Virus record (IMG/VR): IMGVR_UViG_3300027917_003468
Span: 1 to 64,000 of that record
Strand: one strand, 5' to 3'
Source: a virus
Lineage: Duplodnaviria > Heunggongvirae > Uroviricota > Caudoviricetes
Length of the DNA stretch: 64,000 nucleotides
Shown: one piece after another, positions 27,447 through 61,710 of the stretch
How the letters are laid out: each line of letters starts with the position of its first letter
Position numbering within the stretch: position 1 is the stretch's first letter
The notes under the pieces: generated by a model
What the model saw: only the letters and a program-made list of their open reading frames with translations
Databases searched by the model: none
Told to the model about the DNA's origin: nothing
Position numbers and translations under genes: made by a program

Positions 27447-27523
27447 ATAAGACCAAAAATTGTTGACAAAAGAATTAGGTCTTCGATTTCTCTGGGGTCC
27501 ATTTTATTGCCTTCCTGTATTAC

Positions 27524-28598: not shown

Positions 28599-28618
28599 TG
28601 TTTACCTCCTGCATGTCA

Positions 28619-29023
28619 TTAAAAGGTATAGAGACTTTCCTTTTTTTCTTTTGCTCGTTGCTGTTGGATTTTGAGGGTTTCGCAGCTCTGTTGTAGTACT
28701 GTGTCATTTGGAGTCCTGCGTAATTCTCTCAGGCAATTATTGTAGTCCCTTTCAAGTGAGTCCTCTAAATAATCATATTGCTGATACTGCTGCCCCTTTT
28801 GGAAATCCTTCATAGTTTGAACTGTTTCAAGTTCTAGTTGTACGATTTTTTGTTCCAATTTCTCTTCAATATGTAAAAATCCTTTCTTCACTTCTTCACA
28901 CTTTGCAAGCCGATCATCGTATTTGATAAATCCAAAAATAAGTCCAAATGCGACACCAACACCAGTAACCGTTTTCCAAATTCTACCGTTAGTTTTCTTT
29001 CTGTTATTATTGTTCTCAGTCAT
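28619..29023 (-). CDS. membrane-anchored coiled-coil protein
   Basis: N-terminal TM segment. Confidence 0.4.
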   Translation of the reverse strand: MTENNNNRKKTNGRIWKTVTGVGVAFGLIFGFIKYDDRLAKCEEVKKGFLHIEEKLEQKIVQLELETVQTMKDFQKGQQYQQYDYLEDSLERDYNNCLRELRRTPNDTVLQQSCETLKIQQQRAKEKKESLYTF

Positions 29024-29079
29024 GGTTCTCTCCTTCTATCCTATTACTGATACTTGACAACAACACTAGTGCTTTCCTC

Positions 29080-29110
29080 TTGACTTTCGATTTTTCTTGC
29101 GTTATTATAT
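29080..29110 (+). promoter_or_regulatory. sigma70-like promoter TTGACT-17-TATTAT(ATAAT)
   Basis: Upstream of + gene 29192. Confidence 0.5.
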
Positions 29111-29191
29111 AATACATAGCTCGTAATGTGCAACCTCAAAACAGAGGCTGGTTAAACAAAAAAGGCCAGTGTAGACAAAGGAGAAGGCTCA

Positions 29192-29656
29192 ATGACAGAA
29201 CAAGATCTAAAGTACCAACAAGAACGTGAATTCGAAACTGGTATGGATGAGTTCTTCAAAGCACACACGCTAGGAAGATCGAGTTCAGAGGCCGAGAATC
29301 TAAGAAATCTGTATGCAAACATCAAGAGAACATTTGATGAGTACCAGCAAGAAAGTCTGGAATCCATCAAGAGAAATCGGACATTTGTAGATAAGGTGCT
29401 TACAGATGCGCAGCAAAATGATAATGCTCGGCAAAACATTGCCAACCAAGCGCTACAGAATGCAGTAGAAACAGCGAATATGGTAGGCAAACAGGCTGTA
29501 CGGCATAGTGACATTGCGATTGATCGGCAGTGGAATGTGGATGAGCAAGGATATACAGCACAGAAAATCCTAGCTGCGATCCAAGATCCCGCAGTGATTG
29601 CTGCTATGGCTGCGTCGATTGCGAAGGCTATGACTGACATGGCCGGTAACAAGTAA
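29192..29656 (+). CDS. hypothetical protein (moron-like: own promoter and terminator, opposite strand to neighbours)
   Basis: RBS AAGGAGAAGG; followed by terminator 29686-29720. Confidence 0.55.
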   Translation: MTEQDLKYQQEREFETGMDEFFKAHTLGRSSSEAENLRNLYANIKRTFDEYQQESLESIKRNRTFVDKVLTDAQQNDNARQNIANQALQNAVETANMVGKQAVRHSDIAIDRQWNVDEQGYTAQKILAAIQDPAVIAAMAASIAKAMTDMAGNK

Positions 29657-29685
29657 CCTGTTCTATTTATAAGAGCTGGAGATAG

Positions 29686-29720
29686 GCGTGGGGCATTGTG
29701 TTCCACGCCTATTTTTTGAT
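29686..29720 (+). terminator. intrinsic terminator ATAGGCGTGG..CCACGCCTAT + T6
   Basis: 10-bp stem plus TTTTTTG. Confidence 0.65.
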
Positions 29721-29791
29721 AGAGACGAAGGGAATTGAACCCCCATATCACGGTTCGTAGCCGTGCGCTCTATCCTTTGAGCTACGTCTCT
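29720..29791 (-). tRNA. tRNA-Arg (ACG)
   Basis: D-arm TAGCTCAAAGGATAGAGC; anticodon arm CACGG-CTACGAA-CCGTG. Confidence 0.75.
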
Positions 29792-30128
29792 ATGGTACGA
29801 AATTGTAACCAAGGTATTCTATCACTCCGTGTACAATTTGCTTTGCTATTTTTTTGTTGGGAGCTGCCTTGATAAATTCATTAATGGCAACTAGAGGAAT
29901 CCTACCATCTTCCAACTTCTCATCCAGAAACCATCCAATATTGTATACTATTGCATCTGCATCTGACATAATCATATACGTTCCAGGGGTGTAGGTGGGT
30001 GGATCGTCTGGACGTTCTTGTGTATTGAATTCCTTATTTTCTTTGAGTGCTTCTCCAATTTCTTTTATCACGAACTCAGATACTTCATCTCCCCATTGCC
30101 AGACTTCTTTGCTCAAATGTGCTGTCAT
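29790..30128 (-). CDS. hypothetical protein
   Basis: ORF between tRNAs. Confidence 0.4.
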   Translation of the reverse strand: MTAHLSKEVWQWGDEVSEFVIKEIGEALKENKEFNTQERPDDPPTYTPGTYMIMSDADAIVYNIGWFLDEKLEDGRIPLVAINEFIKAAPNKKIAKQIVHGVIEYLGYNFVP

Positions 30129-30146
30129 AAGACTCCTCCCGTTTTA

Positions 30147-30222
30147 TGGTGGTGACGATAGGATTCGAACCTATGCTCTCTGGATTATCGGTCCAACGCT
30201 TTACCAGCTAAGCTACGTCACC
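30147..30222 (-). tRNA. tRNA-Ile (GAT) tentative, CCA encoded
   Basis: Acceptor GGTGACG/CGTCACC; D-arm GCTTAGCTGGTAAAGC; anticodon loop CCGATAA (C at position 33 is unusual). Confidence 0.65.
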
Positions 30223-30499
30223 AATTACATTAAATAAAATCCTTCTGTAAACTGCTCAATGAATACGGGGGTACTATCGCCGACCCACGCACCTAAAACA
30301 TTGTATTCAAAATATTCCATAGCTTCATCGTTGGTCATACCTTTTCCTATTAATATCTGGATACAATTGTCATAATCATAACATGCCACTGCAGGTTGCC
30401 CCGCTCGATAACATATTCCTATTAAAGCCTCTTCAAATCCATCAGCAAGTAAAGCATCTTCATTTGCATCGGTAAGCATCTCAACCTTCTCCTCAAATT

Positions 30500-31261
30500 T
30501 CATAAGATATGTACTCCCAATGAATGTCTGAATGCTTTTGATATCACAGTCTTTCCTGTGAGTAATTTGGTTCTTCCTAGGGTTTTAAATTTTTTGGGAA
30601 AGATACTATTGTACAAGGTGAAGCAGAGAGTATCTTCACTAATCAATGACATCATACGTTTCTCTTCCTTAAAGAACAGACCTGCATTTTCGATTTTTAC
30701 AGGATATACCTTTCTCTGTTCCACCTTGTAACATTTTTTGTGAAGCTTTTGGACTATTGGTGTTAATGATTTGTGGCCAAGATCTCCCCATTTGAACTTC
30801 GTCTTGTTTTTGATTAGATAATCTAGTATATTGACGTAAGCTGAAATAATCTTTCCACCCTTCTGACTGCCCATAAAGCAAGCACCTACATACTGTTTCT
30901 TGTACGCCTCTTGAATACTGTAAACAAAATCCTTTTTCATTTTATGTAGTGCCGCATGAACCTCCTCAAAATCTCTTATAACCAATGTATCTGAATCTAG
31001 CCACACACCACCATATTTTTTTAGAAGAGCGGCTCGTATATAATTGGATCTGGCTGTAACTGTATGTACTGGATTAGTGTCGTACCCAACTTGATATACT
31101 CTTTCATTCAGATCTGGTAAAAATTTTCTCAGATTTTTGGGAGTTATGTGATTAACTGTAAAGTGCTTGCTGCAGTGCTTTGTTATAGTCTCCTCACATA
31201 CACTTATATATCCAGGTTTTGATGATCCTTTAGGCGTTTCCCAATAAGTAAATAAGTGCAT
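30500..31261 (-). CDS. DxD-type glycosyltransferase (capsule-synthesis/Gly_transf_sug-like)
   Basis: AALLKKYGGVWLDSDT motif. Confidence 0.45.
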   Translation of the reverse strand: MHLFTYWETPKGSSKPGYISVCEETITKHCSKHFTVNHITPKNLRKFLPDLNERVYQVGYDTNPVHTVTARSNYIRAALLKKYGGVWLDSDTLVIRDFEEVHAALHKMKKDFVYSIQEAYKKQYVGACFMGSQKGGKIISAYVNILDYLIKNKTKFKWGDLGHKSLTPIVQKLHKKCYKVEQRKVYPVKIENAGLFFKEEKRMMSLISEDTLCFTLYNSIFPKKFKTLGRTKLLTGKTVISKAFRHSLGVHIL

Positions 31262-31413
31262 AATATTAGCTCATGCACTGGCACATCTGGCATATAACAA
31301 TAATAAACATTACAACTCCCAGCTCATTTAGATGCCTTTCGATTTGGGTCAGCAACTCAATAATTTGGTTAGCACTTTCAGGATCCATATATACTATATC
31401 TCCATTCTGCTGA

Positions 31414-31896
31414 TTATGGTAAACTTATTGATACAACTGGTGAATTGTTGTTTGTCTCATCTGATTCATCCACTCGACAATGTTCTGGCATGAATTCATC
31501 ACCAGCACAGCTATCACCTTCGGCCCACATATCAACAGTTATACCATGTGTCTGGGGTATAAAGGTAACTACTCCAACAAATGTCTCCTCATATCCTTCT
31601 CTTAATGAGGCTGTAGTAGACGGATACCAAAAATTCGTTTGCCCAGGAACAGCAAATGAGACTACAAAAGGTGGATGATAGGCTTCTGTACTATTGGCCC
31701 ACATAGCTGTTTTGAATGTACCAGCACTTCCATCACCTTGATTCCTTACTGTTACTGTTGCTGGAACTTGAACAGATCCAGCCGCATTGATTGATGGAGT
31801 TCCTAATATAAGATTAGGTACCACTATGTCAGGTGTGCAACCAAACAAAGTGATTATAAGGAGGAAAATTGATGTTAAGATGTAATATGATTTCAT
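31414..31896 (-). CDS. lipoprotein
   Basis: Signal plus lipobox LFGC. Confidence 0.45.
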   Translation of the reverse strand: MKSYYILTSIFLLIITLFGCTPDIVVPNLILGTPSINAAGSVQVPATVTVRNQGDGSAGTFKTAMWANSTEAYHPPFVVSFAVPGQTNFWYPSTTASLREGYEETFVGVVTFIPQTHGITVDMWAEGDSCAGDEFMPEHCRVDESDETNNNSPVVSISLP

Positions 31897-31995
31897 AATG
31901 CATGCTCCCTTCTATTATGATAATTATGTAACTACTGCCTACAAACTTAACCTTTTATTTTATATTTATAAGGCACTTTTATGTGCTCTTGTTTT

Positions 31996-32070
31996 TGGGA
32001 GCAGGGAGGGGATTCGAACCCCTGTAGACTGGCGTATGAGACCAGTGAGAAACCACTTCTCCACCCTGCT
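31996..32070 (-). tRNA. tRNA-Met/CAT-anticodon tRNA (could be initiator, elongator or lysidine-Ile)
   Basis: Acceptor AGCAGGG/CCCTGCT; anticodon arm CTGGT-CTCATAC-GCCAG; T-loop GGGGTTCGAATCCCC; CCA encoded. Confidence 0.7.
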
Positions 32071-32248
32071 ATATTAGTTCAGGTGGCCCATAAGGTCCAG
32101 ATACTTCGATATGTCTGATATTTAGTATTGTTACTCCCTCGTACATCAGTTCTCTCCTTGCCTTCATCTCTGCTTCTTTTACAGATCCAGCGTCTATCAA
32201 AAAGGAGTCGATTGCTTCATACACGATTTCTACTTGATATTCGGGCAT
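32069..32248 (-). CDS. small protein between tRNAs (start MPEYQVE, RBS AAAGGGGGGA)
   Basis: Trimmed so it does not overlap the tRNAs. Confidence 0.35.
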   Translation of the reverse strand: MPEYQVEIVYEAIDSFLIDAGSVKEAEMKARRELMYEGVTILNIRHIEVSGPYGPPELI

Positions 32249-32269
32249 GGTCTGTTCTCCCCCCTTTAA

Positions 32270-32345
32270 TGGAAGGCGTGGCGGGACTCGAACCCACAAC
32301 TTTCAGCTTAGAAGGCTGATACTCTTTCCGTTGAGTTACACGCCT
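32270..32345 (-). tRNA. tRNA-Arg (TCT), CCA encoded
   Basis: Acceptor AGGCGTG/CACGCCT; anticodon arm TCAGC-CTTCTAA-GCTGA; T-loop GGGTTCGAGTCCCG. Confidence 0.7.
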
Positions 32346-32791
32346 ACTTATTATTTCTTTAAAAGTTTTCCTATTGTACTGTTCTTCCCATACCATTCAT
32401 AACTGCAAAGTATCCTCTCATCCCACTCGTAACTGTGATGTAGTAACTTTCCATCCTGCCTTCTCCTTTTCGTACCTTTCTATTAGCCGAGATCTTATCC
32501 TTGTGGTATATTTTGATCTCCATATCCATCTTGAAACTAAATCCCTAAATATGGTTATAGGTGATGTCACTAGTCTCAATGGAAAAATTTGAAAGGCACA
32601 GATATTACAATGGAGGACGCAACTGCCTTTCCTCAGCTCATTGAAAAATGATATGGATTTTGGGGGAACACATTTATTATCTGCTATCCAAGGTGTTTCA
32701 AATCCAAAGTAAGTTACCCACGACCAACTTTCATATATGTGGTAGATCCTTGGGAATTTTTCTTTGAGTGCCATTCTATTCTCCTTTGGTA

Positions 32792-32879
32792 TGGCGGAGG
32801 GTAGAGGATTCGAACCCCTGCAGGTGTCACCCTGATGTCGATTTTCAAGACCGCTACCTTACCACTCGGTCAACCCTCC
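32792..32879 (-). tRNA. tRNA-Ser (TGA), long variable arm, CCA encoded
   Basis: Acceptor GGAGGGT/ACCCTCC; anticodon loop CTTGAAA; long extra arm. Confidence 0.65.
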
Positions 32880-33307
32880 TATCGTACTACTTCCTCTAAG
32901 ATAGTTCTGAATTTAGCTCTGTATGTAATATTACCGCACCACTTTCCTTTTTCAAATATATCTTCAAATAAGCATCTGATAACAACAATATCACGATACC
33001 TATTACCACCTAAATTTTTCAACTTTAGAGCGCCGTGTTTAGTTGGAAAGAAATAAAATCCGCCAACTTTGGAATTTTTTCTAATTGCTATTTCCTTACA
33101 GATTATTCCCTCCTCATCAGTTGTATAACTCCGATACGTTGCTCTATATCGTTTTTCTTTCTCATAGTTATAAGAAACGCAGTAAAACGGTATATAATAA
33201 TCATCACGCTTCTCGGTTACGGCATAGCCGATCTTCTTATCAATATGAACTCTTTCTCCTGTTCCGAGATCTAAACACATATTGATGCCTTTCTTATTAA
33301 TTAGCTC

Positions 33308-33577
33308 CTATTCATATCCAAGAGTCCTATCGATTTCATCTTTTATTTGTTGCAGTCCTTCCTCAGTATAATACATCAAATGCATACTGCCATCTTTACA
33401 TTTATACACACGCCCAAGTTCCTCTGAATCTAGTGGTTCGTAAAAAATTATAATACACTCGCAATTCAATGGTACAAAGTTTTCTAGCTTTCGTTCTTTT
33501 ATTTGTCGGCTTTCTGATGGGGTATATGAGAGAAGCAGTAGTATCAAAAGGACAAGCATAGATAGCTTGTTTCTCAT
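33308..33577 (-). CDS. small secreted protein
   Basis: Signal peptide MRNKLSMLVLLILLLLS. Confidence 0.4.
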   Translation of the reverse strand: MRNKLSMLVLLILLLLSYTPSESRQIKERKLENFVPLNCECIIIFYEPLDSEELGRVYKCKDGSMHLMYYTEEGLQQIKDEIDRTLGYE

Positions 33578-33615
33578 GGTATCTCTTATGTGTTGTAAGG
33601 TTCATCTTATTTTCT

Positions 33616-33795
33616 TTATATATCCTTCCCCAACCAAATTTCTGCTTCGTCCTCTGCCTTGTAATCGTCGGATTTTTTGTAGCACTCATCACTACAATAG
33701 ATCCACCACCAATCTTCCCAGAATTCACTGTATTTGTCAAATCTTTGTGTGGGACGTTTACATATGGGACAAATAAATTTATACCATCCACTCAT
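33616..33795 (-). CDS. 59-aa Zn-ribbon protein (MSGWYKFICPICKRPT...), ATGA-coupled to upstream gene; not in the ORF track (below its length threshold)
   Basis: Read by hand from the minus strand; C..C...C..C pattern; the end coordinate is approximate by ±1 nt. Confidence 0.35.
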   Translation of the reverse strand: MSGWYKFICPICKRPTQRFDKYSEFWEDWWWIYCSDECYKKSDDYKAEDEAEIWLGKDI

Positions 33796-35060
33796 ACTGC
33801 TCTTATTCCAATCCTTGCCTTTTCAATCTGTTGCTTGGGTAGAGTATTTTTATTTATTTCTGCATAGAGAGTAGACAGTGTGTATGTATCCTTATCCTTA
33901 ATCCAAGTACTCTTCTTACCTCTGTCCTTTAGCCATTTTTTAGCTTGAGAACTTGTAAACGGCTCGAATTTGAGTTTTTGTAAGCATCTTCCAGATCTAA
34001 GAAAAGCTGGATCAATATCTTGTTCTTTTTCATTAGAGGTTATGAGAAAGAGTAGTCGTAATCCCTGCCCTAAAATACCGTCTGTAAGATTAAGCAGCCG
34101 AGACATCGCACCACTTTCATGTACTCTGGATTCCTTCAAAAGAAAGTTCAGACCGTCTTCAATGATAAAAAGCTTGAGTGCAGCGTTTTCTTTTCTTTCC
34201 TGTTGTCTGCTACTCTCTCCAAATGCTGTTAGTGGTATCTCCGAGTCAGAGCGGAAATCTGATATGATGATCTCTTTCATATATCCACCGTCATTAAAGA
34301 AACGTTCTGGGTCAATTACATAAATAAAATCAACATCGTTTTTCCATTCTCTCATCAGAGCACGGATGAGAAAGCTCTTCCCAGTACCTGGATCTCCGTG
34401 CCAAAATATAAATTTTCCAAGATCATCGGGTTGTTCTGCATGCAGTAAACTTTCTACATGCTCTTCAAGTAGAGGATAATTCGGTTTGATCTCTCCCCAT
34501 GACGGACAAATAATCTCTCGGCTTGATATGTTTGCATCACCAGAACTATCCATATAGGTAAAGGTTACTCTTACAATTCTAGGATCTTTCGGTAAGGCAA
34601 TATATTCTTCCAAAAGTTTATTAAAAAAAGGAAGGAGCTGTTGATGAAAATAAGCCTGTCCTTGTACTAGATCTTGTGCATATAAATCTACTACGAATGT
34701 TCCTATATGAAATGTAAGTTTAAGGACTATAGTTCCCTCTACTGGAGTACTAATCCATCTACTAGGTATGACTTTATAAATATACTGGTACTTATATCCA
34801 CTGTATCGATAATTAATTATTGTGTATTGATCTCTATCAAGTTTATTGATAACTATATCTCTACGAAATGTATCAGATAGTTTTTGCCACATCGCACTAT
34901 CAATATAACGTATATGTTCACCTTTAAACTCGTCGAGAATACTTGTATACTTTGCAAATTCTTCAATATCGTTTGCAAAAATCGTATGAGTTTCTTTTTT
35001 CATGCCTCCCCTTTCAGATATATGCCTGTTGACGCCCCATTGGGGCGTAGTCAACCACAC
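33792..35060 (-). CDS. AAA-family ATPase
   Basis: Walker A GDPGTGKS; Walker B FIIED; RSGRCLQKLKF arginine-finger/sensor region. Confidence 0.65.
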   Translation of the reverse strand: MWLTTPQWGVNRHISERGGMKKETHTIFANDIEEFAKYTSILDEFKGEHIRYIDSAMWQKLSDTFRRDIVINKLDRDQYTIINYRYSGYKYQYIYKVIPSRWISTPVEGTIVLKLTFHIGTFVVDLYAQDLVQGQAYFHQQLLPFFNKLLEEYIALPKDPRIVRVTFTYMDSSGDANISSREIICPSWGEIKPNYPLLEEHVESLLHAEQPDDLGKFIFWHGDPGTGKSFLIRALMREWKNDVDFIYVIDPERFFNDGGYMKEIIISDFRSDSEIPLTAFGESSRQQERKENAALKLFIIEDGLNFLLKESRVHESGAMSRLLNLTDGILGQGLRLLFLITSNEKEQDIDPAFLRSGRCLQKLKFEPFTSSQAKKWLKDRGKKSTWIKDKDTYTLSTLYAEINKNTLPKQQIEKARIGIRAV

Positions 35061-35223
35061 CTGTCACAGAGGTATTGGTAACACATATGTCCTGTTCCTG
35101 TATCAGGCATGCCAGATATCACCCCCTTTCATATATAGAAGGATGAGGCACAGATGATCCGACCGTGGTGATGTTTTTGCAGTACAAGGAGAAATATCTC
35201 TGTGCCCCATCCTATGCACTTAT

Positions 35224-35637
35224 TTATTTTACATCAGTTACTTGTAGATTTGTACATCCTTGTGGTGGCTCAATAGCAGGTGTAGTAGCTTGAATGATGT
35301 TCGTCCAACAAAATATGATGCCTGTCCCATAATGAGCACCAACACGAATCTCATACGTCGTTTCTGGCGGAAGATCTTGAATAGTAAAGGTCTTTTGTCT
35401 GTCAGTACTATCAGAAGTATTCCAGATTGTAGAACCCAAAACTCGCCACTGCACTCGTGAAATGATTGGCTTATCTGGAGGGATAGGGTATCCTGCTATT
35501 GAACAATCCCCATCTGAAACTGTAGTTAATGGTAAATCCCATGCTAGGCTAATAGAGTGGGAGTTTGCCGCTTGCGTAACACTTCCAATCAAACTACACA
35601 CTAAAATGGCAATTAGTAGTAACCTGTACAATCTCAT
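35224..35637 (-). CDS. secreted protein, possible FN3-like fold
   Basis: Signal peptide ending VTQA. Confidence 0.4.
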   Translation of the reverse strand: MRLYRLLLIAILVCSLIGSVTQAANSHSISLAWDLPLTTVSDGDCSIAGYPIPPDKPIISRVQWRVLGSTIWNTSDSTDRQKTFTIQDLPPETTYEIRVGAHYGTGIIFCWTNIIQATTPAIEPPQGCTNLQVTDVK

Positions 35638-35849
35638 TTTTTATTCCTCCGTTCTTGTTTGGGTTTACCTACGATAAGTGACATTGGAATTTGATGGTAG
35701 TCGAGCTCTTCTACAATGGCTTCTGCAATTTCTCTTGGTTGTTCTTCAATGTGTCTGTAAATAATAAATACTATCTCGTCTACTTTTGATTCCATGAAAA
35801 TTTTGAGCTCTTCGGGTGTCACGTTTTTGCTAATTTCTCCAATGCACCT

Positions 35850-36731
35850 TTATATTTTTACTATATGTTGTTGCAGAAGCAAAGCAAACTCACTTTCACG
35901 ATCAAGTTCTCTCATATCTATTTTCCATGGTACAAGTTCGGCTCCATCACCTCTAATGGTATAGAATTCTCCACATTCGTCGCACACATAAATACAATGG
36001 TATCTATTTTGCTCTACTCCTACAGCGTTTTGGAGCTCAGGTAATACAATTTTAAGAAGACCAGTACTTTTCATGGTATGTATCATATTGCTGGGTACTG
36101 GATATTTCATTCCTTTTATGAGCTCCATCCTCAGCCTTTCTGCAGAGATACGTCTAATCTGCCGTGCATTTCTCCTTATACCGTTGAAGGTTTCTGGTGC
36201 TATGCTCATGTCCATGTCCAACGCCATGAACCGGCAAGCTCTCAACATTCTTAAGTAATCTTCCTGAAACCGTTTGTCTGCATTCCCTACAGTACGAATG
36301 ACTTTGTGGGAAATATCACGCTGTCCACCAAAGGGATCTAAAATACCATCGGTCTCCAAATCCAGTGCTATGGCATTCATAGTAAAATCTCGACGTTCAA
36401 GGTCGTCATTAATACTGTTAGAGAATTTTACAATGGGTTTCCTACCATTACATTGGAGATCCTTCCTAAAAGTAGTAATTTCAACTGCGTAATTTCGTTC
36501 TTTGCAGTAGATACCTAAAGTGCCGAAACTCTTACCAACACTGTAAATATAATAATCAGAGAATAACTTTTCGATTTCGTGCGGTTTCGCATTAGTGGCA
36601 AGATCTATATCTAATGGTTCTCTCTTGAGGTAAAGATCCCGCAGATATCCGCCGACAATATATGCCTTGTATCCTCTGCATATAAGCCTCTCGCCTATAA
36701 TCTGTGCAAATTCACCTAGTACGACACTCAT
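35850..36731 (-). CDS. cca: tRNA nucleotidyltransferase (CCA-adding enzyme) head/neck domain
   Basis: VGGYLRDLYL...DIDLAT (GGxxRD..DxD) and RRDFTMNA motifs. Confidence 0.8.
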   Translation of the reverse strand: MSVVLGEFAQIIGERLICRGYKAYIVGGYLRDLYLKREPLDIDLATNAKPHEIEKLFSDYYIYSVGKSFGTLGIYCKERNYAVEITTFRKDLQCNGRKPIVKFSNSINDDLERRDFTMNAIALDLETDGILDPFGGQRDISHKVIRTVGNADKRFQEDYLRMLRACRFMALDMDMSIAPETFNGIRRNARQIRRISAERLRMELIKGMKYPVPSNMIHTMKSTGLLKIVLPELQNAVGVEQNRYHCIYVCDECGEFYTIRGDGAELVPWKIDMRELDRESEFALLLQQHIVKI

Positions 36732-37392
36732 ATAAATATCTCTTTACCCTGTGTAGGAGTAGTTCTTTCTTATTGATCTCTGGATGTTCTAGTACCTGTT
36801 CGAGTAGGTGATTCAGAAGCTTTCCAAATACAGGTCCAGGTTTCAGTCCTAACTCGATCAGGTCATGCCCATTGATATCCAAATCGGTTACCTGCATCGG
36901 TGGTTGTTCAGTTTCAATCTCTCTAATTTTCTTTATGAGCTCTTTCAGATGAAAGTTGATTGGGGGTAAACCAGCCTTTGCCAGATTCCCTTTTCGGTCT
37001 GCAATCCGTAACCTTAAGTTGTCTCGGTAATCAGGATTGTTTACCATCCACCTCTTGATACTCTTGGGCTTTGTATCAGGAGTTACGAAATGCATGTGAT
37101 TCCTGACAACTCTGCAGATGTACTCCGTCTCGTTGTTACTGAATTTTAACCGGTCGCAGATCTCTCGGACCATCTTTTCACCCTCTACTTCGTGGGCAAA
37201 GAAATGATAGTCACCAGTATCTTTATCAACAGTACGAGTAGGCACTTTTCCAATATCATGGAGTAGTGCTGCTAACCGTAGAAGTGGGAATCGAGGGTTA
37301 ATTGCGTCCATTGTACGTACACTATGGCTGTACACGTCAGATACCTCTTCCACGCACTTTAGGTTCTCGTATTTGCATTTGTGCTTTTTCAT
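36712..37392 (-). CDS. HD-domain plus CCA-enzyme C-terminal tail domain protein (separate ORF upstream of, and overlapping by 20 nt, the NTase head)
   Basis: LAALLHDIGK ... NHMHF HD motifs; tail TDLDINGHDLIELGLKPGPVFGKLL resembles CCA/poly(A) polymerase C-terminal domains. Confidence 0.65.
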   Translation of the reverse strand: MKKHKCKYENLKCVEEVSDVYSHSVRTMDAINPRFPLLRLAALLHDIGKVPTRTVDKDTGDYHFFAHEVEGEKMVREICDRLKFSNNETEYICRVVRNHMHFVTPDTKPKSIKRWMVNNPDYRDNLRLRIADRKGNLAKAGLPPINFHLKELIKKIREIETEQPPMQVTDLDINGHDLIELGLKPGPVFGKLLNHLLEQVLEHPEINKKELLLHRVKRYLYECRTR

Positions 37393-37440
37393 TTTTTCCT
37401 TGCGTGTTTTTACCCTGCATTTGCGTACTATCTCTACGCA

Positions 37441-37515
37441 TGGTGGTGGTGTCGGGGATCGAACCCGAATCTTGCCGTTATAAGCGACCTACTCTGCCCA
37501 TTGAGTTACACCACC
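37441..37515 (-). tRNA. tRNA-Ile (TAT) tentative, CCA encoded
   Basis: Acceptor GGTGGTG/CACCACC; D-arm ACTCAATGGGCAGAGT; anticodon loop CTTATAA (top stem pair mismatched); T-loop GGGTTCGATCCCC. Confidence 0.6.
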
Positions 37516-38437: not shown

Positions 38438-38623
38438 TCATATGTGCGCCCATGTATACCTGTGAACAATATTCCAAACGTTTGTCCGTTTAGCTCCTGT
38501 CAATTGTGCTATTTTCCAAATCGGTACGCTCTTTTGATACAAACTCCGAATCTCTTTTACTTGCTCCTCGGTCAGTTTGGCTTGGAAGTTCTTCTCTCCG
38601 CCTAGTGATTGTTTTTGGTTCAT
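38438..38623 (-). CDS. small HTH protein translationally coupled to rsr
   Basis: ATGA overlap with the rsr stop; HTH-like IWKIAQLTGAKRTNVWNIV. Confidence 0.4.
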   Translation of the reverse strand: MNQKQSLGGEKNFQAKLTEEQVKEIRSLYQKSVPIWKIAQLTGAKRTNVWNIVHRYTWAHI

Positions 38624-40233
38624 ATTTTATCTGTAACAAACGCCTCGATAACACGGGGAACCTCTGCCGAGAAGCCAACACAATCAAGCATCCCAGCATC
38701 TGTAGGATCGGCAATGGAGAAGTTGGTTGCAGTCATACCCATTACAATCAACTTCGCATCTGGATTTACAGCCTTACGGTAGTTGCGCAGTGCCTGATAT
38801 GGATGTGTACGCCCATACCATGTCTCGTTATCAGTAATTACGAGAAAGGTATCGAACTCTGCTCCCATTTTCTGTGCGTGAATCATTGGTAGCGCACAGT
38901 CCGTAGAACCGAAGTTACTGTCCCTCATCTTCCGCACAACTGTATCTAGCCGTTGTTTTGGGCTAATATCCAGTGGCTTGAACTGGTGAGAGAACTTGTA
39001 TACCGCATAGTCCTTCTCCGTATTGGCTGTAACCAGTGCCATTGCTCCTGCTGCTTCCACGCATCGTAGGTTGCTGTTCATGAGGTGCCAACTCATGGAT
39101 CCAGATACGTCAACAGCAATCATGAACCGCTTTCCTGTAGGTTCCACCGCCTTGAATGCTAGATAGAAAGCGCTGTCCAAAGCATCCACGACTCTCTGTA
39201 CTGGCTTCCAAGATAGGCTTCCCCTGAACCCCTGCCCTTCTGCATATGTCTTCAGGGCGAACAGGATTGCGATTGGATGTACACGAGCCTTTTGTAGGGC
39301 CTTCACGTCTCCCAGACTGTCCTCAATTTTTCTTACTAGGTCTAGGTTGTCAGTAGTCAGAAGTCCAACAGAGCTCATTACTCCCAAGTTCCTGATCATC
39401 GCTGTCATGGGCATCTTCTCGGCAAGAGTTTCCCACACCTTTTTACTTTTCTTGAACTTGGTAGGAAGCATCTCATGAGTCAGACCATGATCTCTGACGA
39501 TCTCGGTCAGTCTCTTTTCTGTCATGCCTTCCTCATGTGCTCTCATGTAGGCATCCAGCAAAAGAATACCGGTAGGCTTCACTTTCTTTTCCTTACCCTT
39601 GCCTTCGTAGAAAGCATCCCTATCGGTTACCCATTTGAACAGTAAGGATTCTTTCTCATCACGAGGCTTACGATGGATGACCCTCAGAGCATCTCGTTGA
39701 GACCAGTCGCCTCGGCTTTGGTACTTCACCATCTGGTAGGCCAACTTGTCCAGTGGCTTCTGGTACCAGTTCCACATCAGTCTCCGTACCTTCCGGTTCC
39801 AGCTTGTCAGTTCGTTCAGGTATCCAACAAAGGTTAGAAAATGTGTACCGGTTCTGACCACCTTGTTGATGTTATCAGGAGAGACGGACTGTCCCTTCGG
39901 CTGATTCGCCACGCAAAGAGCAAGAGCAAACAATGCTGGATCGTTCTTGTGTGCCAGACCTTGATCAGAAACCTCAACGATCTCTTTCACTGTGCGGTCG
40001 AAATCAGTACTGATACACTCAAGAACATTCTGGGCGCTCTTGACTGTGAGTGGATGCTCCTTTGTGTAATAGGTTCCACCCTCTGTTCCAAGGATGAGGA
40101 ACCTACGAAGTGTCTGCCACTCGTCAACCTGGAAGACATACCCACCGGCATAGTTCTTGACCTGATCTTTTCTGGCTTTTGTTCGCTGGTTTGTGTTTGT
40201 TACAGCCTTTGCGTAGTTTAGTTTCCGTGCCAT
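38620..40233 (-). CDS. rsr: Ro60/Rsr orthologue (TROVE domain + von Willebrand factor A (vWA) domain with metal-ion-dependent adhesion site (MIDAS) motif)
   Basis: GYVFQVDEWQTLRRFLILGTEGGTYYTKEHPL and PALFALALC match the Ro60 N-terminus as recalled from memory (no alignment run); vWA MIDAS MIAVDVSGSM. Confidence 0.9.
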   Translation of the reverse strand: MARKLNYAKAVTNTNQRTKARKDQVKNYAGGYVFQVDEWQTLRRFLILGTEGGTYYTKEHPLTVKSAQNVLECISTDFDRTVKEIVEVSDQGLAHKNDPALFALALCVANQPKGQSVSPDNINKVVRTGTHFLTFVGYLNELTSWNRKVRRLMWNWYQKPLDKLAYQMVKYQSRGDWSQRDALRVIHRKPRDEKESLLFKWVTDRDAFYEGKGKEKKVKPTGILLLDAYMRAHEEGMTEKRLTEIVRDHGLTHEMLPTKFKKSKKVWETLAEKMPMTAMIRNLGVMSSVGLLTTDNLDLVRKIEDSLGDVKALQKARVHPIAILFALKTYAEGQGFRGSLSWKPVQRVVDALDSAFYLAFKAVEPTGKRFMIAVDVSGSMSWHLMNSNLRCVEAAGAMALVTANTEKDYAVYKFSHQFKPLDISPKQRLDTVVRKMRDSNFGSTDCALPMIHAQKMGAEFDTFLVITDNETWYGRTHPYQALRNYRKAVNPDAKLIVMGMTATNFSIADPTDAGMLDCVGFSAEVPRVIEAFVTDKI

Positions 40234-43223: not shown

Positions 43224-44408
43224 CTATTTCCATTTGTATCCTCTAAAAATAGCGTCTTTATTTACTCTATATATGAATGCGTTTATAAGACGCAATATTT
43301 CTACTAGCACTTCTGTTGTTAGAAGATTAGGTTTGAGGCCAAGATCTAATAGCTTTGTGTGTGTAGGATTGTAATAATGCTTCTCCTTCTCTACTCTGGG
43401 ATTTGGAATATGAGAGATCTTAACTTTCTTGTTTCCTTTACTTATAGTCTCATACGCCTCCTTGACCTTCTCTGCCAGTTCATTCACAGAAAATATCTCG
43501 GTTATCTGGTTATAGATCTCTAATTTTCCTGATTGTGGTGGATTCATTGCTGCTAGGTAAACACACTGCATTGTATCCTTAATGTTCAAGTATCCTCGTG
43601 TCTGACCGCCTTCTCCGTATATGGTAAGAGGATGATCAATCAGTGCTTGAACAAGAAAGCGATTCAAGACAGTACCAAAGACTTCATCATAATGGAAATT
43701 GGTAAGTAGTTCTATATCAATCTCTTTTTTATCCCCATCTTCTCTCATCTCGTCCGTCACAAGGCCGTAGACTGGACCCTGCATTAGGTCTGTAACACGC
43801 AATCCCCAAGTTCTCACGTAAAACCATAACATATCTGTATCCATCACCTTTGTTGTGTGATAAAGACTTCCAGCTGCTCGTGGAAATAAAAGTGTGTCTT
43901 TGCGCCCTTTGTAATCTAACTCAAACCAACCTTCAGGAATATCGACATTAGGTGTACCAAACTCACCCATGGTCCCCAGTTTGATAATGTGACAATTAGG
44001 ATTCGTGTCTTTTACAACATATGCGACATTTAAAGTACTGACAAGATTGTTTCGTAAGGTTTGCTCAGCACGTTTTCTGTCAATCATAGACCATGGACCC
44101 GATGGTTGTTCAGCATAATGTATAACAGCTTCGGGTTGGCAATACTCAAATACTCCTCGTAAAAAATCGTAATCAGTAACGTCACCGATTTCTAGTCCAA
44201 TTACTGTATTACTATCTGCTGAAGTATTCCAATGTTTTACTCGTTGATGAAGATTGGGGTTAGGAATAAGAGCTTCTACATCCAGATCCCTCGAAGCATT
44301 ACGTCTGAAATAGTTATCAACACCATAAACTGAATGTCCTCGTTTTGCGAAGTACATTGCAGTTGGCCACCCAAGATATCCGTCCATTCCTAGTATTAAG
44401 ATTCGCAT
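43224..44408 (-). CDS. NAD-dependent sugar epimerase/dehydratase, SQD1/SqdB-like (UDP-sulfoquinovose synthase family)
   Basis: GMDGYLG Rossmann motif; YHTTK catalytic motif; ~394 aa; WGLRVTDLMQGPVYG resembles SQD1. Confidence 0.6.
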   Translation of the reverse strand: MRILILGMDGYLGWPTAMYFAKRGHSVYGVDNYFRRNASRDLDVEALIPNPNLHQRVKHWNTSADSNTVIGLEIGDVTDYDFLRGVFEYCQPEAVIHYAEQPSGPWSMIDRKRAEQTLRNNLVSTLNVAYVVKDTNPNCHIIKLGTMGEFGTPNVDIPEGWFELDYKGRKDTLLFPRAAGSLYHTTKVMDTDMLWFYVRTWGLRVTDLMQGPVYGLVTDEMREDGDKKEIDIELLTNFHYDEVFGTVLNRFLVQALIDHPLTIYGEGGQTRGYLNIKDTMQCVYLAAMNPPQSGKLEIYNQITEIFSVNELAEKVKEAYETISKGNKKVKISHIPNPRVEKEKHYYNPTHTKLLDLGLKPNLLTTEVLVEILRLINAFIYRVNKDAIFRGYKWK

Positions 44409-57016: not shown

Positions 57017-57514
57017 TTATACAAAATCATCAAATTTTTCTTCTTCATCATCGTTAAATGACATGGATTGTGTAAGGATTTCAATGGCTTTATTCTCACA
57101 TTGTCGTATGTACTCCCTTGTGACTCCACGTTTTTTGCCGATCTCGTCCAGGGTTTTGTCACGATAGTAATATCTTTCAACAAGTATTTCTAACAACTTC
57201 TTTTGTTTTGGTTTGAAAAAGTGTTCTAGATAAGTAAATGCCTTATCACTGGTCTCAAACTTATCTAACATTGGTTTGAGGTCCTTATATTTGTTATCTA
57301 AAATTTCTACTCTTTTTGGCACTTTCGTTACCTCCTCTAATACTTCTCTACACGGTTTACAAATGCCTTTCTGATTTTTCATGATCACTTTGTCACAGAT
57401 ATCGCAATATTCGATAGGATTGGTTTTCCGTCGATGAAACCATCTGTAGCATATGATACACAGATCGAAGGCATAGAGCTCCTTATCCTTATGGCACCAC
57501 CAACATTTTGCCAT
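57017..57514 (-). CDS. sigma-70 region-4-like regulator with N-terminal Cys4 zinc ribbon
   Basis: CWWC..C..C..C..C; C-terminal RGVTREYIRQCENKAIEIL HTH. Confidence 0.55.
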   Translation of the reverse strand: MAKCWWCHKDKELYAFDLCIICYRWFHRRKTNPIEYCDICDKVIMKNQKGICKPCREVLEEVTKVPKRVEILDNKYKDLKPMLDKFETSDKAFTYLEHFFKPKQKKLLEILVERYYYRDKTLDEIGKKRGVTREYIRQCENKAIEILTQSMSFNDDEEEKFDDFV

Positions 57515-58111: not shown

Positions 58112-58714
58112 ATGAGTAAATTGGTACGTTCGACTCGTAGTTTGGATGAGCATGTTGACAACCTGCTAAAAGTGCGGGAGCTCAGAAATGCTGGTAAGAG
58201 TAATCGTAGTATTTGTAAAGAGCTTAATATTAGCTACATCGTATTGAAGAATTACGAAACGATACTTGTTAAAAAAGAGCTTGAAGGATTATCAGATGAG
58301 TTCCAAAATGAAAAACGTTTGCTGTTAGATGATCAGGTTCTATCAGTAATAGGAAAATTAAATGAGGCTGGGAAAGCTGTCGAACAAGAACATGATAATT
58401 TAGTGGAACAAATCAATACCCTACTTGCAGATGATAAAATAGATGTGTTGGTAAAGGCCAAACTAAGAAGATTTGTTCGGTACCCTGTCAATGATATAGC
58501 ACACATTCAAAAACTTATACTCAATGCTGTCGAGCTGCGTTCAAAAATATGGGGGCTTGATAAGGAGCACAAAGAAACAGCTTCCATCACAAATAATAGG
58601 AAAATAGTTTTTCAGTTGAATGAAAAAGTCGAGACAGATGCCAATAAGTTAAACTCTATAGCAGATTCAATTATAGAAAATACACATGGGATGCGGATGC
58701 AAAAAGAGAACTAA
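58112..58714 (+). CDS. candidate small terminase subunit (HTH N-terminus, coiled coil)
   Basis: Position immediately upstream of the large terminase; N-terminal HTH-like NRSICKELNISYIVL. Confidence 0.4.
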   Translation: MSKLVRSTRSLDEHVDNLLKVRELRNAGKSNRSICKELNISYIVLKNYETILVKKELEGLSDEFQNEKRLLLDDQVLSVIGKLNEAGKAVEQEHDNLVEQINTLLADDKIDVLVKAKLRRFVRYPVNDIAHIQKLILNAVELRSKIWGLDKEHKETASITNNRKIVFQLNEKVETDANKLNSIADSIIENTHGMRMQKEN

Positions 58715-58934
58715 TGGTACGAGGGCAACAGCAACAGAGAATGCTTTACGATTTGTTTATTGTCCTCAGTGCGATGTGGTAAAAGCAAAAAGGGGCATAG
58801 CTTCTGAAATAGCGAAGTATAGATGCCCCCAATGTGACCACAAGCCGGTAATTTTTGCTAGGCCACCAACAGCACAAAGACTGCGTAGAGAGAAGGAGAG
58901 GCGAGGGATTGATGAGCCTTCAATCGGTAGCTAA
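58686..58934 (+). CDS. small Zn-ribbon protein
   Basis: CPQCD...CPQCD. Confidence 0.3.
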   Translation: MGCGCKKRTNGTRATATENALRFVYCPQCDVVKAKRGIASEIAKYRCPQCDHKPVIFARPPTAQRLRREKERRGIDEPSIGS

Positions 58935-61710
58935 TGATCAAATTACTGACAAACCAGTTCAAGTCGAATTGGATATGGATGAATGGTATAACTTGTGCCG
59001 TGAACGTCCTGATGCCTTTGCACACTATTATTTCAAACATATTCTTAGATCTCCTAGTAGCGACTTCCACTTCTTATTGTATTCTCTTATCAAAAAAATA
59101 AATGAGACACCCTATCCTAATAATATTGCTATTGCAGCCCCACGAGGAAGTGCCAAGACACAAATTATAAATGTAATCCTCCCTATCTGGTGTGCAGCCT
59201 TCGAACTAAAAAAATTTATTGTGGTTATGAGTGAAACAAGCAGATTGGCAGAAGCAAACTTAGAATCTATTAAGTATGAGCTTACGTCCAATGAACTTCT
59301 TGCTGAGCACTTTCCGCATCTTGTTGGTGAGGGAGCAACTTGGAGAAAGGAAGTTATTGATACTTGTAATGATATACGAATCATTGCAGTGGGCAGTGGT
59401 AAACAGGTACGAGGAAGTCAGAAGAAGGGAGGACACAGGCCTGATTTGACATTGTGCCATCCTGCTGGAACTAAAATACTAGGTACCAAAAATAATATTG
59501 ATGTATCTATGTTAACAGTAGGAGATAAAGTTTATAACCATAATTGGGAAGAGGATGAGATTATAGCCTGGAAACCTCATACTTGGACTGGTGATTACTA
59601 TAAATTCAAACTCTACGGGCACCCAGAAGAAATTGTAGCTACAGCAGGGCACCAATTTTTTGTAAGGAAGAGGGTAGGAAAAAAATATATAAGAACCGGT
59701 AATCACATGAAATGTTTAGATAGAGGAAAATGGAAGAGAAACCAATATGAATGCCTGGTAACATATTCAGAGCCCAAAAAATTGAATGTAAGAGAAATAG
59801 AAAAGGGGGATATGGTAGGGTATAAAATAAATACTAAAATAATTCCCATAGAAGAAATAGCAAGAAAAGAAAATTGGAATATATACAAACCTGGGGGGGA
59901 GATAATAAATAGGGATGATAAAGGTAGGATTGTACAAGGCGGTAAAGGATCATATAAGCCAGTAAATATTGGTGGTAAAGAGTGGTGGCTGGCTTCGAAG
60001 GAGTTTTGGTGGCTTGCAGGAGTATTTTTAGGAGATGGGACAGTAGATAGAAAAACAGGTTATAGTACTAGATTCTCTTGTAATCCGTCAGAAATAGACC
60101 ATATTAATAAAATTATTAGAAGTATCGAATTTTTGGGGAATACGCCCTCTAAAATCCGAGAGAAAACAGTTGTAAGTATACACCTATCAAATAGACTCAT
60201 AAATTATATTTTTAATCAATGGAAAAGAGAAAAGAACTCCCACAAAGTACCTTCAAGAAATATTGAGTTTTTAGATCCAGAATTACAAAGGCAATTAATC
60301 TTAGGTTATATTGCCGCAGATGGTTGGGTTTCTAAAGAGCAGGGGGTTAGAATTACATCGGTGTGTTTTGAGCTCCTAGAATTTATACAGAGGATCCTTC
60401 TTCGGCAGGGAATAGTTAGTAGTATTAGGAATGGAATAAAAGGAGGAGAGGTTAAAATATTTGACCGTATTGTAAACACTCAAGATAAGTATGATCTCTA
60501 TTTTAAACAAGATGCCTGGAAACTCGGTCTACTACCAAAACCAAAAAGCAAACTTAAATTGAATAAGCGCTGGTTTATTGAAGATGATACTGTGTGGAGA
60601 AAAGTTAAAAGTATAGGTTCAGAATATAAGACAGATATTGTATTTCCATTTAAAGTAAGAGATGAGCATTCTTATCTAACTACCCAATTTTATAGCCTAA
60701 ATTGTGATGACCTTTCCTCGGACGAGATGGTAAGAACAAAGAAAAGACGTGATGATCATGAGGATTGGTTTAGGAGGGCTGTTATGGGAATGGAAGGAAC
60801 GGCTGATACAAAAATGGATGTTATTGTCACAGGTACTATTCTACACCCCCATTGTCTTCTTTCCAAGTTACTAGATCCTAAAATATTTGCTGGTTGGGAA
60901 TCCTATAAATATAAAGCCATATACGAATTTTCTAAATCACCTCTATGGAAAACGTGGGAGCACCTTTATACAAGTTATGAGGATGAGAAGAGAGAAGAAA
61001 CTGCATACAATTTTTTTAAAGCGCATGAAAAAGAAATGCTAGAGGGTACTAAAGTGCTTTGGCCAGAGGGAGATGGGTACTATAAACTGATGGTTTATAA
61101 AATTAAAGCTGGACCAAGAGCTTTTGCTAGTGAGAAACAAAATACTGCAATTGATCCTTCACAAACTCTATTTGACCCACAAAGAATAGTTTACTTCGAC
61201 CGCAGGGACATAGATCTAGATAAATTGGTTATATATGGTGCTATAGATCCTGCTAGTGGTGAGGCAAAACGACAAGGAGACTTATCAGCAGTTGTAACTA
61301 TTGGCAGGGATCCAAAGTCAGGCATTATATATGTATTAGATGTAATGGCCGCAGCGAAGGGTCCTAGTTACTGTATTAAGTATATTAAAAGAGTGCATGA
61401 GCTCTATGACTACCGAAAGTTTGGAGTGGATCAGGACGCACTAAAAATGCTAAAGGATTTCATCGAGAAGGACATACCAGATTTACAGGGAAAATTAACC
61501 TTGTATGATTTGAGACTACCTAAACCTAAACGTATTGATCGATTAGAACCTATTATTCATAGTGGGCTCTTACGTTTTCAAAGGAATCAGTTAGAGGCGA
61601 CGGAGGAATTAACATTTTATCCCAATAGTGAGCATGACGATGTTCTGGATGCCTTAGAGATTGCTGTAAGACTTACAGGACACCGAGGTTACAGACTCTT
61701 AACATATTAG
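58912..61710 (+). CDS. terL: terminase large subunit interrupted by an intein
   Basis: Walker A AAPRGSAKT; exteins join to give RPDLTL-CDDL (Walker B-like); C-terminal nuclease region; start placed at MSLQSV after RBS GGAGAGG. Confidence 0.85.
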   Translation: MSLQSVANDQITDKPVQVELDMDEWYNLCRERPDAFAHYYFKHILRSPSSDFHFLLYSLIKKINETPYPNNIAIAAPRGSAKTQIINVILPIWCAAFELKKFIVVMSETSRLAEANLESIKYELTSNELLAEHFPHLVGEGATWRKEVIDTCNDIRIIAVGSGKQVRGSQKKGGHRPDLTLCHPAGTKILGTKNNIDVSMLTVGDKVYNHNWEEDEIIAWKPHTWTGDYYKFKLYGHPEEIVATAGHQFFVRKRVGKKYIRTGNHMKCLDRGKWKRNQYECLVTYSEPKKLNVREIEKGDMVGYKINTKIIPIEEIARKENWNIYKPGGEIINRDDKGRIVQGGKGSYKPVNIGGKEWWLASKEFWWLAGVFLGDGTVDRKTGYSTRFSCNPSEIDHINKIIRSIEFLGNTPSKIREKTVVSIHLSNRLINYIFNQWKREKNSHKVPSRNIEFLDPELQRQLILGYIAADGWVSKEQGVRITSVCFELLEFIQRILLRQGIVSSIRNGIKGGEVKIFDRIVNTQDKYDLYFKQDAWKLGLLPKPKSKLKLNKRWFIEDDTVWRKVKSIGSEYKTDIVFPFKVRDEHSYLTTQFYSLNCDDLSSDEMVRTKKRRDDHEDWFRRAVMGMEGTADTKMDVIVTGTILHPHCLLSKLLDPKIFAGWESYKYKAIYEFSKSPLWKTWEHLYTSYEDEKREETAYNFFKAHEKEMLEGTKVLWPEGDGYYKLMVYKIKAGPRAFASEKQNTAIDPSQTLFDPQRIVYFDRRDIDLDKLVIYGAIDPASGEAKRQGDLSAVVTIGRDPKSGIIYVLDVMAAAKGPSYCIKYIKRVHELYDYRKFGVDQDALKMLKDFIEKDIPDLQGKLTLYDLRLPKPKRIDRLEPIIHSGLLRFQRNQLEATEELTFYPNSEHDDVLDALEIAVRLTGHRGYRLLTY
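59455..60702 (+). mobile_element. intein (~416 aa) with LAGLIDADG homing-endonuclease domain inside terL
   Basis: Starts with CHPAGTKILG and ends ..FYSLN just before CDD; blocks LAGVFLGDGTV and LGYIAADGWVS. Confidence 0.75.

Follow-up and report, generated by a model that had tools for sequence, protein, structure and literature searches.

How can a tailed phage propagate when the ATPase active site of its large terminase is split by several hundred extra residues? This question is raised by the large terminase gene (terL) of a Caudoviricetes virus, which lies in a 64,000-nucleotide (nt) stretch of metagenomic DNA (positions 1 to 64,000 of the IMG/VR record IMGVR_UViG_3300027917_003468; hereafter the window). 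A sequence-only reading of the window had proposed that the insert in terL is an intein with LAGLIDADG motifs. We now conclude with high confidence that the insert belongs to the class 1 inteins, that a LAGLIDADG endonuclease with two motifs is nested in it, and that it lies in frame in the Walker B strand of the terminase (TerL). All coordinates are positions in the window, relatives are labelled with P (proteins) or L (loci), and a slash within a motif marks a splice junction.

The gene is contained in a single long forward frame (58855-61710 in the list of open reading frames, ORFs), which is uninterrupted over 932 codons across both junctions of the insert (Table 1). The TTG at 58855 is an unlikely start. 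Translation likely begins at the ATG at 58912, because a Shine-Dalgarno-like stretch (GAAGGAGAGG) lies upstream of it and the resulting spliced length equals that of the orthologues P0003, P0004 and P0005 (516 aa). This ATG overlaps an upstream 82-aa zinc-ribbon ORF by 23 nt, and the same overlap is found in the syntenic locus L002. The insert spans 1,248 nt, or 416 codons: it opens with the Cys1 codon tgc (59455-59457), closes with the Asn416 codon aat (60700-60702) and is followed by the Cys+1 codon tgt (60703-60705), so that the junctions read RPDLTL/CHPAGT... and ...FYSLN/CDDL. Given the base composition of the region, the probability of 416 stop-free codons arising by chance is about 6e-17, and the two other forward frames are interrupted by 39 and 52 stops. 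The GC content is 34.4% in the intein and 39% in the exteins. The translation thus bears out the insert described by the sequence-only reading, with its Cys start, length of ~416 aa, SLN end and Cys+1. The length of ~535 aa that it had given for the spliced product needs correction: from the likely start, the predicted product is 516 aa long (59.5 kDa), as in the orthologues, with the spliced junction sequence RPDLTLCDDLSSDE, RPDLTLCDDLSSDEMVR (which includes LTLCDDL).

The strongest indication of a precise insertion comes from the closest relatives, which we retrieved in a search covering 5.8 billion proteins. The 516-aa proteins P0003, P0004 and P0005 have no intein and share 86%, 84% and 80% identity with the window TerL; other relatives are longer (901 aa in P0011, 873 aa each in P0013 and P0018, 784 aa in P0021). 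In the alignment, the insert appears as a clean gap in nine of 11 relatives. When the 1,248 nt are removed in silico, 1,551 nt are left, which is exactly the length of terL in L003 and L002, and the spliced gene aligns with these two at 80% and 76% nucleotide identity with zero indels. At the protein level the two syntenic intein-less orthologues are 86% and 84% identical, again indel-free. L002, L003 and the window also share the gene order around terL (sigma70_r4, a ~155-aa gene, a 200-aa gene, an 82-aa gene, terL, a ~530-aa gene). The element is therefore an in-frame insertion at a conserved site, with exact boundaries, that is absent from orthologues. The sequence-only reading had singled out intein-less TerL relatives as the informative comparison, and had reasoned that a non-intein insertion in the homologues would speak against it. 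Instead, the homologues either lack the segment altogether, with exact boundaries in the close orthologues, or carry it with the terminal Asn or Gln and the following Cys or Ser intact.

Could the insertion be an artefact of assembly or annotation, such as a chimeric contig, or a free-standing homing endonuclease gene or intron misread as in-frame? The window is metagenomic, and in another record of this phage (L005) the contig is broken within terL, ~650 nt beyond the intein. We nevertheless give this explanation a negligible probability. A single frame of 932 codons crosses both junctions, the same architecture recurs in independent samples (ENA ERZ925377 for L004, JGI 3300009169 for L001, and the fragment P0058), and an Rfam scan of the window detected no intron. 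L005 itself (IMGVR_UViG_3300001687_000124, sample 3300001687) starts inside the C-extein, matches the window at ~61354-61710 and is 100% identical to its TerL from spliced residue 218 onward.

The identity of the host protein as a large terminase, also proposed by the sequence-only reading, is well established once the intein is removed in silico. The PHROG family of large terminases, phrog_38, covers residues 22-505 of the spliced protein in a single stretch (E = 4e-81), and tblastn returns single-piece matches to the TerLs of Pseudomonas Mu-like phages at 33-35% identity. An AlphaFold2 (AF2) model of the spliced TerL has a predicted local distance difference test score (pLDDT) of 88.4, and in Foldseek it matches the terminases of PhiV-1, T4 (gp17), HK97, T7, Sf6 and D6E (E = 1e-16 to 1e-9). 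The TerL profile matches the G20c/P74-26 nuclease domains (5tge/5m1q); Pfam Terminase_6C on the C-extein stays below the cut-off (E = 0.004). In spliced numbering, P77, R78, K82 and D183 are invariant and D184 is nearly invariant among 48 TerL homologues. The P-loop aligns with the sequence AFRGIGKS of T7 gp19, and the model places it between the strand 71-75 and the helix 82-96. The spliced protein hence has both hallmarks of an ASCE ATPase, namely the Walker A AAPRGSAKT and the Walker B LTLCDD, and phrog_38, Foldseek and the profile matches agree on an RNaseH-like nuclease domain and an overall TerL fold. Neither the intein nor the spliced TerL gave a useful phmmer match to PDB sequences, whereas the extein profile and fold searches did produce matches. 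Megablast of the terL region found no match among deposited phages, which indicates a phage without close cultured relative.

Where exactly does the intein sit? The Walker B consensus is hhhhD[D/E]. The AF2 model of spliced TerL has a single beta-strand at residues 179-183 (LTLCD), with D184 as the next residue, and the profile alignment superimposes RPDliilDDlE on RADIIIADDVE of T7 gp19. According to this model, the junction separates the third from the fourth hydrophobic position of the Walker B beta-strand, and Cys+1 directly precedes the acidic pair. The sequence-only reading had assigned the site to a joint Walker B and coupling motif. Its first half holds; the coupling (C) motif is a separate element, which probably corresponds to the invariant G225-T226 after the strand 220-225. 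Intein-less relatives accept various residues at +1 (C, S, G, A, N, L and I). P0003, the closest of them, also has Cys at +1 and 17 identical nt 3' of the site, and may be open to homing or may once have had the intein itself; the empty site in L003 reads CCCGATTTGGTACTT/TGTGATGACCTTTCC (core GATTTGGTACTT/TGTGATGACC). TerL is essential for tailed phages, and its ATPase core would be broken up by a 48.6-kDa domain in the midst of the Walker B strand. It appears, then, that only splicing can account for a viable phage, and the precursor, in which 416 residues split the core strand L-T-L/C-D-D, is very probably inactive.

The insert has the domains, catalytic residues and fold of a LAGLIDADG intein, as the sequence-only reading had supposed from its motifs. 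Pfam LAGLIDADG_3 (PF14528) matches residues 277-343 above the cut-off (E = 6e-15). In an alignment of 36 sequences (A3), C1, H66, G189, G195, K264, G284, Y285, D289 and G290 are invariant, and G5, D194, Y407, N416 and Cys+1 are nearly so. The AF2 model of the intein, built on this alignment, has a pLDDT of 92.5 and a predicted template modelling score (pTM) of 0.90, with lower values (pLDDT 56-60) at residues about 81-100. Over its full length the model matches PI-SceI (1vde, E = 8e-18), the Tli and Pho VMA inteins, PI-PfuI and the intein homing endonuclease II 2cw7 in Foldseek, while its central domain alone matches I-DmoI and I-Tsp061I (E about 5e-7, TMt 0.63-0.70). Model and matches agree on a HINT fold. 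The secondary structure of residues 177-350 follows the duplicated alpha-beta-beta-alpha-beta-beta-alpha pattern, and each of the two LAGLIDADG helices ends in an acidic residue (D194 and D289). Cys1, the block B residues T63-x-x-H66, and Asn416 followed by Cys+1 assign the intein to class 1. In blocks F and G we recognized Pro398 (F:4), His405 (F:13), Ser414 (G:5), Leu415 (G:6) and Asn416 (G:7). A class 3 intein is ruled out by the presence of Cys1, by Pro398 at F:4 and by Ser414 at G:5.

The C-terminal end departs from the usual His-Asn, which the sequence-only reading had rightly noticed: G:6 is Leu415, and the penultimate His that is typical, although not obligatory, is missing. We searched 1.84 billion representatives with the intein using phmmer and obtained 599 matches. 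At least 46 inteins among the best 150 of these 599 matches occupy the same TerL site, RPDxxx/C...N/C(x)DD. Within this set, G:6 is His in 41 of the 46, the terminal residue is Asn in 44 and Gln in two, and the +1 residue is Cys in 45 and Ser in one. The sub-clade of the window ends differently, with S-L-N/C in the window, S-Q-N/C in P0057 and A-G-Q/S (terminal Gln and Ser+1) in P0011; His at F:13 is kept in all three (DEH405SY in the window). We rejected a frameshift artefact as the origin of ...SAGQ/S in P0011, where the +1 frame reads ...VVQGN and only frame 0 keeps the register with block G and the downstream DDL. The His-less end is a real feature and also a known variation: functional inteins with other residues at G:6 are documented, and phage inteins are often without the penultimate His (PMC4031507; PMC5050341). 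The end series SHN/C, SLN/C, SQN/C and GQ/S represents, at one orthologous site, a natural series of C-terminal splice-site chemistries.

Three points weigh against an actively splicing and homing element. Leu at G:6 instead of His and Pro at F:4 instead of Asp are non-canonical, and splicing could consequently be slow or conditional. Pfam Intein_splicing matches residues 36-411 (E = 3e-5) with 24.1 bits, against a curated cut-off of 35.8. Finally, the divergence of the intein tracks that of the exteins in the comparisons with L001 and L004, which looks like mostly vertical inheritance in these lineages. The first two points would also fit a degenerate ex-intein that no longer splices and remains part of the mature terminase as an additional domain. 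This is very unlikely in our opinion: C1, N416, C+1 and the Thr and His of block B are intact, the HINT parts are under purifying selection (see below), the documented inteins with other G:6 residues are functional, and a 48-kDa domain in the core strand just before the catalytic DD is incompatible with a Walker B fold.

We infer that translation yields a precursor of 932 aa (108 kDa), and that this precursor matures by the four steps known for class 1 inteins. Cys1 would first undergo an N-S acyl shift with the aid of Thr63 and His66 of block B, and trans-thioesterification to Cys+1 would follow. Cyclisation of Asn416 would then free the 48.6-kDa intein, and since the usual penultimate His is Leu, this third step would probably be assisted by His405 of block F. 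A final S-N shift would produce a normal peptide bond, giving a 516-aa, 59.5-kDa TerL with an intact Walker B (LTLCDD). The His-less sub-clade, in which one case also has the terminal Asn and Cys+1 replaced, offers a natural set for studying compensation at the third step.

Loss of the penultimate His may also have been selected to slow or gate Asn cyclisation, in which case the intein would be a timer or switch on the packaging ATPase and not a purely selfish passenger; we consider this rather improbable. We judge equally doubtful the related idea of a conditional intein, whose splicing is gated by redox (Cys1/Cys+1) or by slow His-less Asn cyclisation so that the terminase is active late or conditionally. 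A redox trap between Cys1 and Cys+1 is conceivable, as in other inteins (established knowledge, cited in PMC7156551), G:6 is non-His throughout the sub-clade (L, Q, G), the identity of G:6 tunes precursor accumulation in a phage intein (Kelley et al., PMC5050341), and, placed in the ATPase active site, the intein is bound to render the precursor inactive. However, P0003, P0004 and P0005 thrive without the intein, which makes no regulatory need apparent, and the same features are expected of a purely selfish element that targets conserved motifs.

Such an element would persist at little cost to the phage after splicing, and its endonuclease could cut intein-less terL in co-infections, the intein then being copied in by repair. 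Is there evidence that both activities are maintained? Compared with L004 (P0057), the closest intein-bearing relative, the intein is 87% and the exteins 89-92% identical. The ratio of non-synonymous to synonymous substitution rates (dN/dS) is 0.089 for the whole intein, at a dS of 0.83; it is 0.045 for the endonuclease domain, 0.091 for the N-terminal and 0.076 for the C-terminal HINT part, and 0.02-0.05 for the exteins (0.05 for the N-extein, which is 88.9% identical at the protein level). These low ratios show purifying selection on both the splicing and the endonuclease domain. The dS of the exteins (1.4-2.3) is near saturation and higher than that of the intein.

The distribution of the element is sporadic. 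In a neighbour-joining tree of the exteins, the intein at this site (site a) is found in the window together with P0057 and separately in P0011, and each of these has intein-less sisters. Nearly all of the 80 IMG/VR relatives retrieved with a 14-sequence alignment are without intein. Homing would fit this patchy distribution among close relatives. It is also possible, though unlikely in our view, that the intein splices and that its endonuclease no longer homes, so that it survives as a vertical passenger kept because imprecise loss kills TerL. Near-equal identities of intein and exteins (65% and 65% to L001, and those given above for L004) are what co-divergence would leave, and the rarity of the intein among the 80 relatives shows no population sweep. 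On the other hand, the intein retains D194, D289 and the invariant K264, and nowhere else in it is dN/dS as low as in the endonuclease domain, a value difficult to reconcile with a dead domain. The dS of the intein is also lower than that of the exteins, and the distribution on the tree is patchy. Dead endonuclease domains are moreover deleted in this clade, as shown by a 188-aa mini-intein at another site of TerL (site b) in P0021. Within the clade of the window, the sequence comparisons suggest that recent descent was mostly vertical. We found no clear identity peak indicative of a co-conversion tract between the window and L003, only 17 identical nt directly 3' of the site.

Site b, RAFx/C...HN/SEKQN, lies between the ATPase and nuclease parts and is empty in the window. 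It hosts inteins unrelated to those of site a in P0057, P0013, P0018 and P0021, which have intein-less sisters too. Both sites are occupied in P0057 (L004, with the site b intein at 4722-5825 of that locus), resulting in a 1,289-aa precursor.

Beyond these close relatives, the ability to detect homologues depends on the method: a word-indexed protein search with the intein gave two distant matches and missed P0011, which is 65% identical. The homologues that we inspected among the phmmer matches are larger host proteins, with the homologous segment between C...[HN]N/C junctions. By BLASTP, the host exteins of the same-site inteins range from 43% identity with the window TerL to barely detectable similarity, so the intein lineage has spread widely across terminases. 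A Pfam scan of ten host proteins of homologous inteins assigned almost no extein family. The CHxxGT...SHN/C lineage also occurs in a DUF932 protein (P0083, PF06067, E = 2e-30) and at another TerL site (...YGLxx/C...SHN/, followed by C or S and -x-TQxQAD), the proteins concerned being P0083, P0101, P0103, P0114, P0123 and P0142, and P0078, P0093, P0096 and P0173. A single lineage of inteins has thus invaded several target sites.

Table 1. Coordinates of the terminase gene, its intein and their parts in the window
Feature	Position	Strand	Description
TerL precursor gene	58912..61710	+	932 codons plus stop; 108.1 kDa precursor
N-extein	58912..59454	+	181 aa; N-terminal part of TerL ATPase domain, ends ...RPDLTL; gap-free alignment to P0003/P0004/P0005
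Walker A / P-loop AAPRGSAKT	59134..59160	+	TerL residues 75-83
Split Walker B	59446..60711	+	L-T-L 59446-59454 / intein / C-D-D 60703-60711; predicted spliced sequence RPDLTLCDDL
Intein	59455..60702	+	416 aa, 48.6 kDa; assigned to class 1, with nested LAGLIDADG homing endonuclease
N-terminal HINT and extra beta-rich region	59455..59979	+	Residues 1-175; mostly beta in model; block A C1-H-P-A-G-T 59455-59472, block B T63-A-G-H66 59641-59652
LAGLIDADG endonuclease domain	59980..60519	+	Residues 176-355; motif 1 LAGVFLGDG 60013-60039 (Asp194), motif 2 LGYIAADG 60301-60324 (Asp289)
C-terminal HINT part	60520..60702	+	Residues 356-416; blocks F and G, VFPFKVRDEHSYLTTQFYSLN, at 60640-60702
C-extein	60703..61710	+	335 aa plus stop; Cys+1 60703-60705, Walker B D-D 60706-60711, rest of ATPase, RNaseH-like nuclease domain
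Unoccupied intein site b RAFA/SEKQN	61126..61131	+	Different intein at this column in relatives

Upstream of terL, an 82-aa Cys-rich ORF (58686-58934, +) that L002 and L004 also conserve has two CxxC pairs and is zinc-ribbon-like. This ORF and the 200-aa ORF at 58112-58714 occupy the position expected for the small terminase subunit. A 536-aa ORF lies 3' of terL, where L002 and L004 then have a Phage_capsid_2 gene. Neither this ORF nor the upstream 200-aa ORF has a Pfam match. Two ORFs with sigma-70 region 4 occur at 57017-57514 (-) and 8023-9231 (-), with E = 4e-9 and 8e-11; one of them, conserved in L001-L004, borders the putative packaging module on its upstream side. In L002, a run of glycosyltransferase genes is found upstream of the packaging module.

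Other LAGLIDADG ORFs occur in the window. The sequence-only reading had listed two free-standing LAGLIDADG endonucleases, a description that suits the first of them: the ORF at 3121-3951 (+) is a good match to LAGLIDADG_3 (E = 1e-8), with the acidic residues of both motifs in place (YADG, FDGDG). The second, at 23152-24111 (-), has two N-terminal helix-turn-helix domains fused to a LAGLIDADG half, and is probably degenerate and nuclease-dead, because the acidic residues of its motifs are replaced (YSRG, FDGRG). The two ORFs are homologous to each other (32% identity, E = 3e-14). We discarded the idea that they are copies of the intein endonuclease, as their similarity to the intein is not significant. 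No group I intron was detected around either ORF with Rfam. An extra LAGLIDADG_2 ORF is found in L004 (9213-10052, +) just upstream of the Phage_capsid_2 gene, a position with no ORF in the intein-less L002. This group of phages appears to be generally rich in homing elements.

Elsewhere, the window encodes a 537-aa Ro60/TROVE and vWA protein (38620-40233, -; PF25045, E = 6e-65; PF05731, E = 2e-37). Its gene adjoins an island of 10 tRNAs (24816-37515, -) for Asn, Gln, Ser (two), Trp, Arg (two), Ile (two) and Met. No Y-RNA-like partner of the Ro60 protein was found at the Rfam gathering score. The ORF at 43224-44408 (-) is an NAD-dependent epimerase/dehydratase (PF01370, E = 4e-21).

What does this locus add to the known phage inteins? 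For annotation, terL should be described as a 932-aa precursor that is inferred to mature to a 516-aa enzyme, and the 1.25-kb insert should be excluded from TerL phylogenies and from predictions of the packaging strategy. The current understanding is unchanged, since TerL was already known as the most frequent host of phage inteins. The window adds a well-delimited member to a lineage that occupies the RPDxxx/CDD site of very divergent terminases, with intein-less and doubly-invaded orthologues at hand.

In structure, the intein resembles PI-SceI (Sce VMA1), the archaeal VMA inteins, PI-PfuI and 2cw7, with which it shares the HINT fold, the beta-rich DNA-recognition elements and the nested two-motif LAGLIDADG endonuclease (E = 8e-18 to 1e-10, TM about 0.5-0.6, sequence identity 11-15%). 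Unlike the window intein, these reside in other hosts (V-ATPase, ribonucleotide reductase, polymerase) and have the canonical penultimate His.

In sequence, the only matches of the intein in a tblastn search of 50,697 deposited phage records are the Eggerthella phage LE2-3 portal, the Lactococcus 949-group NrdD, the Corynebacterium phage P1201 thymidylate synthase and the crAss-like cr118_1 TerL. All are very distant (22-26% identity, with the LE2-3 match covering 100% of the query) and lie in host genes or at sites that differ from those of the window; phrog_26446, an NrdD carrying an intein, matches as well. The sub-clade of the window intein is thus so far known from metagenomes only.

By host gene and site, close counterparts are the inteins of mycobacteriophages, in which TerL is the commonest intein host and insertions occur in the P-loop, the Walker B and the C-motif; for several of them, experiments demonstrated splicing as well as cleavage of intein-less alleles (Kelley et al. 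2016, mBio, PMC5050341). Of particular relevance is TerL1-e, an insertion in the Walker B. Like the window intein, the mycobacteriophage TerL inteins are class 1, with Cys1 and Cys+1, and bear homing endonucleases. They further share with the window the location in ATPase functional motifs, the sporadic distribution and the frequent replacement of the penultimate His (PMC5050341). The host of TerL1-e is an actinophage terminase_1, whereas the window TerL is nearest to Mu-like, Terminase_6-type enzymes (33-35% identity), and we liken the inteins by site and features; none of the tblastn matches among the 50,697 deposited phages is to a mycobacteriophage. The TerL of the Microcystis cyanophage Mic1 contains an intein in the ATPase and a second one closer to the nuclease domain, the large one with a homing endonuclease domain (PMC7156551). 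In architecture, it resembles P0057 (L004), where sites a and b are both filled, while the window has site a only. TerL inteins are also reported from crAss-like phages, and at times two per gene are found in the crAss-like and Mic1 set.

Another close system is the metagenomic TerL lineage CH(E/K)KGT...SHN/CDD (for example P0060, P0063, P0066 and P0080), which is homologous over the full length at 25-37% identity (E down to 1e-34). It shares with the window the insertion point RPDxxx/C(x)DD and the invariant C1, H66, GDG, K264, GYxxADG, Y407, N416 and C+1. The sub-clade of the window (with P0057, P0011 and P0058) differs from it by a CHPxGT start, a longer N-terminal half and an SLN, SQN or GQ/S end. 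Overall, TerL inteins, Walker B inteins and His-less inteins have all been published before, and this sub-clade is new as a sequence, not as a kind.

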